A stretch of 54,512 bases of DNA from a virus (IMGVR_UViG_2529293142_000033), one strand, 5' to 3'. Counted from the stretch's first letter, positions 37,749 to 40,246 are shown. Program-made: numbers and translations. Notes: generated from the letters alone by a model not told the origin.

Positions 37749-39161
37749 GTGGGCATTATCACAGACGCGGTGGCGGACACGCTGGGGCTGTCTTCCACCG
37801 GCGGGTGGGACTGGCAGTCGCATATTAATCAGGCGTCCTTCCGCGGTGTGCCGTTTGGCGTCATCAGCGGTGAGAGCGTGGTGGGCCGCCGGGTGGCGGT
37901 ACATGAATATCCGTACCGGGATACGGTGTGGGTGGAAGACCTGGGACGCAGTGCCCGGAAGTTCACGCTGCGTGGGTTCCTGATACAGGACAGTCTGGTG
38001 TACAGCGCCGGAGATGTGTTCAGCCAGCGTGACGCGATGATTGCGGCCTGCGAGACATCCGGTGGTGGTCTGCTGGTGCATCCGACGCTGGGTGAGATGA
38101 CGGTGTATGTGCCGGACGGCGGGCTGCGTATTGAAGAGGGGGTGGAGTCCGGGCGGGTATTTTCGTTCACGCTGACCGTCATTGAGTCAGGTGAAAAAGC
38201 GTTTTCACTGGTGACGGGGACAAGCTCCACGTCATCGGAGACGTGGTATCAGACGCTGACCACAACGGCCGCCGTGATGCTGGCGGCGATTACCGGTGAG
38301 ATGAACAGTGTCACCGGGGCGGTTAAGACGATAAAGAGCACGGTGAGCGCGTGGGAGACGATATTTTCGCGGGCGGTGACATCGGTGACCAGTATGACCA
38401 GCACGGTGTCGTCCCTGTTTTCTCCGGACAGCTACGGGCGTTACTGCACAGCCAGTGACAGCGGGACCGCATCAGGCAGCACGGCCTCGTCACTTTCCAC
38501 GTGGCTTGCCACCACGGAGGCGGATGATGACAGCATTCTGGAAACCATTCAGGCCTGCTCCGTGCGGGACCGGTCGGCGGCGGAATCGGCGATAGCGGCG
38601 CTGGATGACATCTCGTCCGTATCCGGTGCTGTGTCCGCGATACAGGCGGTCATCACCACGCTGGCGGAGGCCACGGGCAGTGACACGGAGAAAATCCGCG
38701 TCATGGCAGAGATTGCGTCGGCGGAAGACGGGACGTATTACGAAGGGGAGACGGCCTGCGCCATCAGTGCATCCGTGCAGGCCTTCATCCGCACCCTGGG
38801 CGCCGGTGCGATGCTGTGGCGACTGATGCAGTACACCCCTCAGGGTTACGATGATGCGGTGTCGGTGATGCGGAAGGCCCGCACGGTGACAGAGGCGGTA
38901 CTGCTTCTGCTTGCTGATGCCGGAGATGACGACAGTCACGATGCGCTGAATGCGCAGTACACGCAGTTTGTCACGCACTGGCAGACGAATTATCTGTCAC
39001 AACAGGACGTGATGAAGGTGACCAGCCGCTCACCGCAGCCGTCGCTGGCGCTGGCAAACCGGCTGTATCAGGACGCCGCGCGTGCGGACGAACTGGTACA
39101 GGCGGCCTCTCCCGTCCATCCGGCGTTCATGCCGCTTTCCTTCACAGCGAGAAACTCATGA
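37749..39161 (+). CDS. DNA circulation protein (Mu gpN-like)
   Basis: about 470-aa ORF following tape measure; GTG 37749 with gaggag RBS (longer ORF from 37731 possible). Confidence 0.65.
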   Translation: MGIITDAVADTLGLSSTGGWDWQSHINQASFRGVPFGVISGESVVGRRVAVHEYPYRDTVWVEDLGRSARKFTLRGFLIQDSLVYSAGDVFSQRDAMIAACETSGGGLLVHPTLGEMTVYVPDGGLRIEEGVESGRVFSFTLTVIESGEKAFSLVTGTSSTSSETWYQTLTTTAAVMLAAITGEMNSVTGAVKTIKSTVSAWETIFSRAVTSVTSMTSTVSSLFSPDSYGRYCTASDSGTASGSTASSLSTWLATTEADDDSILETIQACSVRDRSAAESAIAALDDISSVSGAVSAIQAVITTLAEATGSDTEKIRVMAEIASAEDGTYYEGETACAISASVQAFIRTLGAGAMLWRLMQYTPQGYDDAVSVMRKARTVTEAVLLLLADAGDDDSHDALNAQYTQFVTHWQTNYLSQQDVMKVTSRSPQPSLALANRLYQDAARADELVQAASPVHPAFMPLSFTARNS

Positions 39162-40246
39162 GTACAACCACAGACGACACCCTGACACTGAAGGTAAACA
39201 ACACCGTCATGTCGGGGTGGAATGATATCCGGGTGACGCGGGGCGTAGAGCGTCTGCCGTCGGATTTTGAGCTTTCGCTCACGGACTGGTATCCGCAGGA
39301 AGGATACCAGCTTGCCCCGCCGGGGAGCAGCTGCACGATAACCATCGGCGACGACCGGGTGATGACCGGCTATGTCGACCAGTGGGTGAACACCCTGACG
39401 CCGCAGTCGCATGACATCCGGGTGACGGGCAGGGGGATGTGTCAGGACCTGGTGGACTGCTCCGCCTGGTAGGAGAACAACATGATAAAGGGCGGTGATG
39501 CGCTGGCCATCATCAGAAAACTGGCGTCGGTGTACGGCATCACGGTGACGACAGACGTCGACAGTTTCACCACGGTGCCGGATTTTGTCATCAACTGGGG
39601 GGAGTCGTCGCAGCAAATTATCGACCGCATCTGCCGGTATGAGGGGCTTCTGTATTACGACCTGCCGGATGGCAGCCTGTTCCTGACGCGTGCGGGAACG
39701 GCGTCGGCAGCCAGCGGGGTGACACAGGGGGTGAACCTGCAGAAGGCGGAGTACACACGAAGTATGAATGAACGGTTTTCGGAATACACCGGCCTGTCGG
39801 TGTCAGTGAACAGTATCAGCGAACTGTCGCCGGCATCCGGTTACGACAGCGTGATGCTGGCAACGGCCCGTGACCCGGAAGCGGCCAGTATGCGCACCCG
39901 CCGTCACGTCACGATAGTGGAGAGCACGCTGATGACGACGGGGTGTGCACAGCAGGCGGTGAACTGGGAAATGAACCGGCGCTACGGGCGCTCAATGGCC
40001 CTGAATGTGACGGTGGACAGCTGGCGTGACAGTGCAGGGGTGCTGTGGCAGCCCAACACCTTTGTGCCGGTGAGCATACCTGCACTGGGGGCGGACAGTC
40101 TGAACTGGCTGGTCTCTGAGGTGACGTTCAGCCGTGACGATGAGACGGGGACCACGGCATCGCTGGTTCTGATGCCGCCGGAAGCGTTCAGCGTGCAGCC
40201 GTACCGTTTTTATTCCGGCGTGGCCGGAAGGGATGTGTCGTCATGA
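39158..40246 (+). CDS. baseplate hub protein (Mu gpP / late-control-D family), interrupted by in-frame TAG at 39470-39472
   Basis: ORFs 39158-39472 (104 aa) and 39482-40246 (254 aa) are in the same frame, separated only by TAG plus 3 codons; combined size matches gpP/gpD family; aggaga RBS precedes the second ATG. Confidence 0.65.

Follow-up and report, generated by a model that had tools for sequence, protein, structure and literature searches.

An in-frame amber codon in the Mu gp44-type baseplate hub gene of an Escherichia coli prophage: a probable recent nonsense mutation

The window, i.e., the whole stretch of 54,512 nucleotides that was analysed, carries a prophage that combines a lambda-like head with a contractile tail of the Mu kind. 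It is located between yjbM (DUF2713; window 1–708) and dusA (flank region 52289–54512), as in E. coli EC12, and its tyrosine integrase (52289–53386, minus strand), which adjoins dusA, is 100% identical to the EC12 integrase. The tail genes are arranged as in Mu: sheath, tube, chaperone, tape measure (with an SLT domain), DNA_circ_N (gp43), hub, Phage_Mu_Gp45, GP46, Baseplate_J (gp47) and Phage_Mu_Gp48. Within the hub gene, a single reading frame runs from ATG at 39158 through TAG at 39470–39472 and the codons GAG AAC AAC to ATG at 39482, and ends with TGA at 40244–40246. The sequence thus agrees with the first-pass annotation, which had described ORFs of 104 and 254 amino acids in the same frame, separated by the TAG and three codons. 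This layout was read directly from the sequence, and a chance statistic is not applicable to it. The features of the locus are as follows:

37731–39161, plus strand: upstream neighbour, a DNA-circulation/Mu gp43-type gene (Pfam DNA_circ_N, E 1e-29), intact
39158–40246, plus strand: whole baseplate hub gene, a homologue of Mu gp44 (gene P), 362 codons if intact, broken at codon 105
39158–39469 (ORF with stop to 39472), plus strand: N-terminal fragment of 104 codons, with the first (tube-like) hub domain and the initial ~10 residues of the second
39470–39472, plus strand: amber codon TAG, with base 39471 changed from G to A; the ancestral codon is TGG (Trp105)
39471–39476, plus strand: Shine-Dalgarno-like AGGAGA, which overlaps the stop codon, with a spacing to ATG 39482 that fits reinitiation
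39482–40246, plus strand: C-terminal ORF of 254 codons, starting from internal Met109, with the remainder of domain 2 and the later domains
40243–40824, plus strand: downstream neighbour, a Mu gp45-type central spike gene (Pfam Phage_Mu_Gp45), intact

The hub gene is tightly packed between its neighbours: its start codon overlaps the stop of the DNA-circulation gene (ATGA), and the TGA of the 254-aa ORF overlaps the start of the spike gene. Both neighbours are free of stops and share 99.6% (DNA-circulation gene) and 99.5% (spike gene) identity with their EC12 orthologues. The AGGAGA motif, whose leading AG belongs to the TAG codon, lies 5 nt upstream of ATG 39482. Two antisense ORFs across the site (39068–39616 and 39442–39630, minus strand) had no Pfam match and were interpreted as fortuitous ORFs of GC-rich coding DNA.

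For the Pfam, PDB and fold comparisons, the sequence was repaired by replacing the stop with Trp, which gives a protein of 362 aa. Pfam recognized GpP-like_1st at residues 9–92 (E 4.6e-22), Gp44-like_2nd at 95–178 and GpP_4th at 260–345, as well as Phage_GPD; the bit scores were 74.7, 71.0, 61.5 and 40.7 against curated cut-offs of 27, 27, 27 and 30.1 (PF21683, PF22255, PF21929 and Phage_GPD, respectively). The Mu gp44/GpP family belongs to the same clan as Phage_GPD, T4 gp27 and VgrG. Taken separately, the fragments carry matching subsets of these domains, and the 254-aa ORF retains GpP_4th and a truncated Gp44-like_2nd (profile 17–84). Among the solved structures, the repaired protein matched the Mu baseplate hub gp44 (PDB 1WRU; E 4.9e-38, residues 7–346 against 3–341) and, over nearly the whole length, the 43-kDa tail protein of MuSo2 (PDB 3CDD; E 3.2e-37). 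An AlphaFold model based on a 36-sequence alignment (mean pLDDT 83, pTM 0.81) was matched by Foldseek to 1WRU (E 1e-34, TM 0.80/0.88) and to gp44 in the cryo-EM structure of the Mu baseplate (9KI1 chain G, TM 0.83), with TM values of 0.80–0.90 across 1WRU, 3CDD and the 9KI1 gp44 chain. At greater distance, Foldseek matched T4 gp27 as well as hub and VgrG proteins from other contractile systems.

Judging by these sequence and model comparisons, the two ORFs can be recognized as the two parts of a single baseplate hub gene of the Mu gp44 (gene P) type. The Mu gpP/late-control-D-type identity given in the first-pass annotation is therefore supported by the Pfam domains, including Phage_GPD above its cut-off, and by the 1WRU and fold matches. 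The locus has the domains of the family, the likeness to solved hubs in both sequence and fold, and the position between gp43-type and gp45-type genes. What it does not have is the uninterrupted polypeptide of ~350–380 aa found in its relatives, the frame being broken by the TAG at codon 105.

To establish the ancestral state of this codon, the relatives of the gene were compared. A Megablast search of 5,426 complete E. coli genomes found the gene in nine of them. Six close E. coli prophage relatives were retrieved, sharing 92–99% identity with the window over a 4-kb stretch and 94.1–99.1% identity in the hub gene, which is annotated in them as a single CDS of 1089 nt (362 aa). In the alignment, codon 105 is TGG in all six and TAG in the window. 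Trp also occupies this position in the more distant copy of the strain A34 (79% identity, single CDS of 1095 nt) and in the hub homologue of the Citrobacter phage phiNP, likewise a single CDS. The first-pass annotation had proposed an alignment with intact homologues to see whether the TAG stands at a conserved Gln or Trp codon, and it is the second option that holds: across 29 homologues, with identities down to 53%, the residue is Trp in 27 and Tyr in two. Tyr is also the residue aligned with Trp105 in Mu gp44 and MuSo2. Nearby, Asn108, which falls within the gap between the ORFs, is invariant in the 29 homologues, and the upstream motif DLVDCSA is nearly so; most of them have Val where the window has Met109, from which the second ORF apparently starts.

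Since all six aligned relatives read TGG, the lesion is a G to A change at 39471 (TGG to TAG), and not the C to T change in an ancestral CAG that had been suggested previously. The protein lengths point in the same direction. The best 120 of 762 homologues (E ≤ 1e-10) are 338–368 aa long, save for the 254-aa cluster that holds the window allele, and apart from this cluster none of these 120 has a natural split at the same site. The homologues listed from isolated phages (phiNP, BZS1, SfII/SfIV/SfV/SfI, phiP27 and the Vibrio phages) each gave one continuous match, and none was split. A stop or gene boundary at this position was not found in diverged relatives, whether among the six aligned copies, the 29 homologues or the best 120 of 762. 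One apparent second amber lineage, a 254-aa protein (P0017) with 4 aa different that represents the cluster of the window allele, was rejected: only 28 nt precede the ATG on its contig, and these include TGGTGG, so the short ORF is a contig-edge artefact.

Based on these results, the gene is almost certainly an ancestrally single one that has undergone a nonsense mutation, as one of the two alternatives of the first-pass annotation held: it is a single gene elsewhere, with TGG in the relatives, one CDS and no split homologue. The other alternative, a genuine two-gene arrangement, is not compatible with the TGG codon and one-CDS annotation of the six relatives and with the single proteins of the other homologues. 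A local look alone, at an in-frame stop followed by a Shine-Dalgarno-like motif and an ATG, would favour such an evolved arrangement or a programmed recoding site. However, besides the TGG codon in the relatives and the lack of split homologues among the best 120 of 762 and in the isolated phages listed, the split allele occurs on three contigs and the intact one on 75, and we consider an evolved split or recoding site extremely improbable.

A single mutated gene could nevertheless yield a working hub if ribosomes, after terminating at the TAG, restarted at ATG 39482 with the help of AGGAG, and if the 104-aa and 254-aa pieces then assembled non-covalently. Given the AGGAG and the nearby stop, termination–reinitiation could produce the 254-aa piece: the geometry is good, with a spacing of 6 nt from AGGAG to the ATG and with the stop 9 nt upstream of that ATG. 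In the AlphaFold model the region around the break consists of a strand (85–93), a helix (96–100), a coil and a further helix (115–124); the break falls in the coil, where Pfam domain 1 (9–92) gives way to domain 2 (95–178), and the 254-aa ORF carries no added damage. On the other hand, the second domain would be cut 10 residues past its start, with the loss of four residues, namely the nearly invariant Trp105, Glu106, Asn107 and the invariant Asn108, and a natural split here is seen in none of the best 120 of 762 homologues, the cluster of the allele itself aside.

The motif itself also speaks against this reading. In intact relatives the bases of AGGAGA read GGGAGA and lie inside the codons for Trp-Glu-Asn, i.e., both the Shine-Dalgarno-like element and the ATG form part of the normal coding sequence there. 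TAGGAG and TGGGAG have the same calculated duplex energy with the anti-Shine-Dalgarno sequence, −7.3 kcal/mol, so the pairing is not strengthened by the mutation, and the idea that the G to A change made or improved a Shine-Dalgarno sequence was ruled out. The description of AGGAGA as the second ORF's own ribosome-binding site is accordingly not supported, the ATG being that of internal Met109. Because the same bases are GGGAGA coding sequence in intact relatives, the succession of stop, Shine-Dalgarno-like motif and start codon is, as far as sequence comparison can tell, accidental, and it illustrates that a single base change in ordinary coding sequence can place all three in a row. We therefore regard a hub functioning through reinitiation as unlikely. 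If it did work, it would be a natural demonstration that a hub of the gp27/gp44/VgrG type tolerates a break at the boundary of domains 1 and 2.

The distribution of the allele bears on both its reality and its age. By exact look-up, the repaired 362-aa protein (P0001), identical to the window product except at residue 105, was found on 75 contigs. The split products of 104 aa (WP_000108399.1) and 254 aa (WP_000589599.1) were found on three contigs (AFDY02; Logan SRR6061347). Of these, the AFDY02 record is contig AFDY02000024.1 of the NCBI assembly GCA_000225185.3, which differs from the window only at 46045–49877 (15 differences), an insertion-sequence region. The SRR6061347 contig, from a separate run and reported for 3 samples, is 100% identical to window positions 30256–43464 (13.2 kb). 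Neither the 254-aa ORF nor the repaired protein shows further damage, the latter having no second change relative to P0001. Thus, as in a recent pseudogene, a single disabling change separates this copy from intact alleles that are otherwise identical.

The AFDY sequence is a 454 assembly of the LEE-negative STEC strain 031 (H.I.8 in the appendix), serotype O174:H21 (PMC3491183). The use of 454 reads for the source assembly (PMC3491183), together with two homopolymer indels of doubtful status in other parts of the prophage, could suggest that the TAG is a sequencing or assembly error and that the true codon is TGG. However, the change is a substitution outside any long homopolymer, which is atypical of 454 errors, and the identical allele occurs in the different run SRR6061347 with 100% identity over the 13.2 kb. 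As the same allele is found in AFDY02000024.1 and in this separate-run contig, a one-off base-calling error is unlikely, and an error of any origin we judge very improbable. On the strength of these sequence records, the allele can be regarded as real, as young and as restricted to a single lineage.

The prophage runs collinear with that of EC12, the identity being ~96–97% over most of its length, and in a tblastn comparison of the EC12 prophage proteins having a counterpart in the window, an internal stop was found in the hub gene only. The two homopolymer indels are located in other genes. The first affects a CI-like repressor (ymfK/LexA-family, S24; 7395–8068, minus strand), which is split by a 1-nt deletion in a T-run at ~7804–7810 (plus strand) into an 88-aa N-terminal ORF (7802–8068) and the S24 domain in another frame (7395–7805). 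The window has A6 here, versus A7 in 99.9%-identical copies such as that of 2015C-4136CT1, where an intact ymfK is annotated; the split 88-aa product is on record solely in Logan SRR057628. The second affects a TerS-like gene (24793–25379, plus strand) just upstream of the large terminase gene; this TerS-like gene is split between two frames (24793–25104 and 25011–25379). Its homopolymer at ~24962–24970 is A8 in the window, in AFDY02 and in the Logan assemblies of SRR057628 and ERR499274, where the split product appears as well. A9, with an uninterrupted TerS-like gene of 195–198 aa, is found in four further assemblies whose TerL is identical. Because the source assembly was made from 454 reads, both deletions may be artefacts; in that case the assembly becomes less trustworthy, but this does not touch a substitution that recurs in a second run. 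Were they real, decay of the prophage would have gone further than one would conclude from the hub lesion by itself.

Several other peculiarities of the window were observed. The segment from the tail-fibre assembly gene to the integrase (46051–51561) differs from EC12 and includes istA/istB of the IS21 family (46908–49210), an IS3-type transposase fragment (49268–49978, minus strand) and a gene for an AraC-family regulator (50300–51130, minus strand) at the place where EC12 has an alpha/beta hydrolase. In the C-terminus of the gp48/YmfQ-type protein (~43330–43590, plus strand) there are about five tandem repeats of 51 nt (17 aa) with the pattern TQEPLVINxxMLQSGY, also visible as offset BLAST self-matches.

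Taken together, we suggest the following course of events. A recent G to A transition at 39471, in one lineage, turned the conserved TGG codon of Trp105 into amber TAG. In a non-suppressing host, ribosomes would halt after residue 104, and because translation ends there no full-length hub would be made. In Mu, the gp44 trimer is placed at the baseplate centre, where it closely contacts both spike and tape measure protein, and gp43 is the tube initiator (PMC11915804). Without the hub trimer, baseplate assembly most likely fails, and it would follow from the missing trimer that no infectious tailed particles are formed in such a host. The loss of function and the tail defect, drawn from the absence of a full-length hub, are thus the most likely outcome. 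Stated as a whole, with the loss of hub function included, the nonsense-mutation explanation is probable, and the gene is most likely a young pseudogene or a conditional-lethal allele rather than a designed split.

The conditional-lethal option requires considering the host. A supE- or supF-type suppressor tRNA, or background read-through of the UAG, might supply enough hub for some infectious particles. The need is small, with three copies (one trimer) per virion (PMC11915804). Tyr, which stands at this position in Mu, in MuSo2 and in the two exceptional homologues out of 29, is tolerated there, so that a Tyr-inserting suppressor would probably restore function. However, strong amber suppressors are rare in wild isolates, and background UAG read-through is usually well below 1%. 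The prophage has four tRNA genes of its own (16114–16423, plus strand) with the anticodons CAT, TCT, TGT and TCC, none of which reads UAG, and a phage-encoded suppressor was ruled out on this basis for the window. Indeed, no UAG-reading tRNA was found within the 54,512 nt, the host genome lying outside them. We consider rescue by suppression or read-through improbable, and the explanation by an inactivating nonsense mutation is retained. It should be noted that the tRNA with the CAT anticodon is called tRNA-Met by ARAGORN, versus tRNA-Ile for the EC12 orthologue in RefSeq.

As for its meaning, the locus is a broken copy of a gene whose family is well characterised; nonsense mutations are common in the structural genes of prophages, and nothing here indicates recoding or a novel arrangement of genes, nor does anything point to a novel mechanism. 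The practical consequence concerns annotation, outside of which the finding matters little: WP_000108399.1 and WP_000589599.1, which both bear the name "phage baseplate assembly protein", are to be read as halves of one pseudogene. For the dusA-adjacent prophage of this STEC lineage, it would mean that infectious tailed particles are probably not produced in a non-suppressing host, and the hub amber may be seen as an early step of prophage decay. As a natural amber allele it also has a convenient natural control in the common intact alleles, which differ only at codon 105.

A comparison with known systems places the allele in context. The closest are the intact E. coli orthologues near dusA (e.g., WP_233679675.1 of EC12 and WP_021560157.1 of 377323_2f), which share 98.6–99.1% DNA identity and the neighbouring genes with the window, the EC12 prophage occupying the same chromosomal site; they have TGG at codon 105 and encode a single 362-aa protein, and the window differs by its TAG. 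A Megablast search of the structural module against the isolated-phage collection gave no near-identical DNA match. The nearest isolated phages are phiNP and the Serratia phage vB_SspM_BZS1, with ~57% identity of the hub homologue over 96–98% of its length; in both, the hub is encoded by one CDS, flanked by the same genes as in the window. The depositors of phiNP (OR565852.1, 1432–2511) and BZS1 call this gp44-type homologue "baseplate wedge protein", a label that clashes with the Mu-type hub assignment made here.

Mu gp44 (1WRU, 9KI1) resembles the window hub in full-length similarity, Pfam domains, fold and the slot between the gp43 and gp45 genes, whereas the identity is ~29% and the window TAG is aligned with a Mu Tyr. 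The prophage as a whole differs from Mu in its lambda-type head (capsid E, decoration D, S49 protease and GpA terminase) and in having an integrase adjoining dusA in place of a transposase. Finally, laboratory amber mutants of phage tail genes, e.g., the Mu late-gene ambers, likewise carry a lone nonsense codon in an essential baseplate gene. Amber mutants in essential tail genes are conditional, i.e., dead in sup0 hosts and rescued in suppressor hosts, and the window allele would be expected to behave likewise. In contrast to the laboratory mutants, the allele described here is of natural origin, having arisen in a prophage that resides in a wild STEC isolate.
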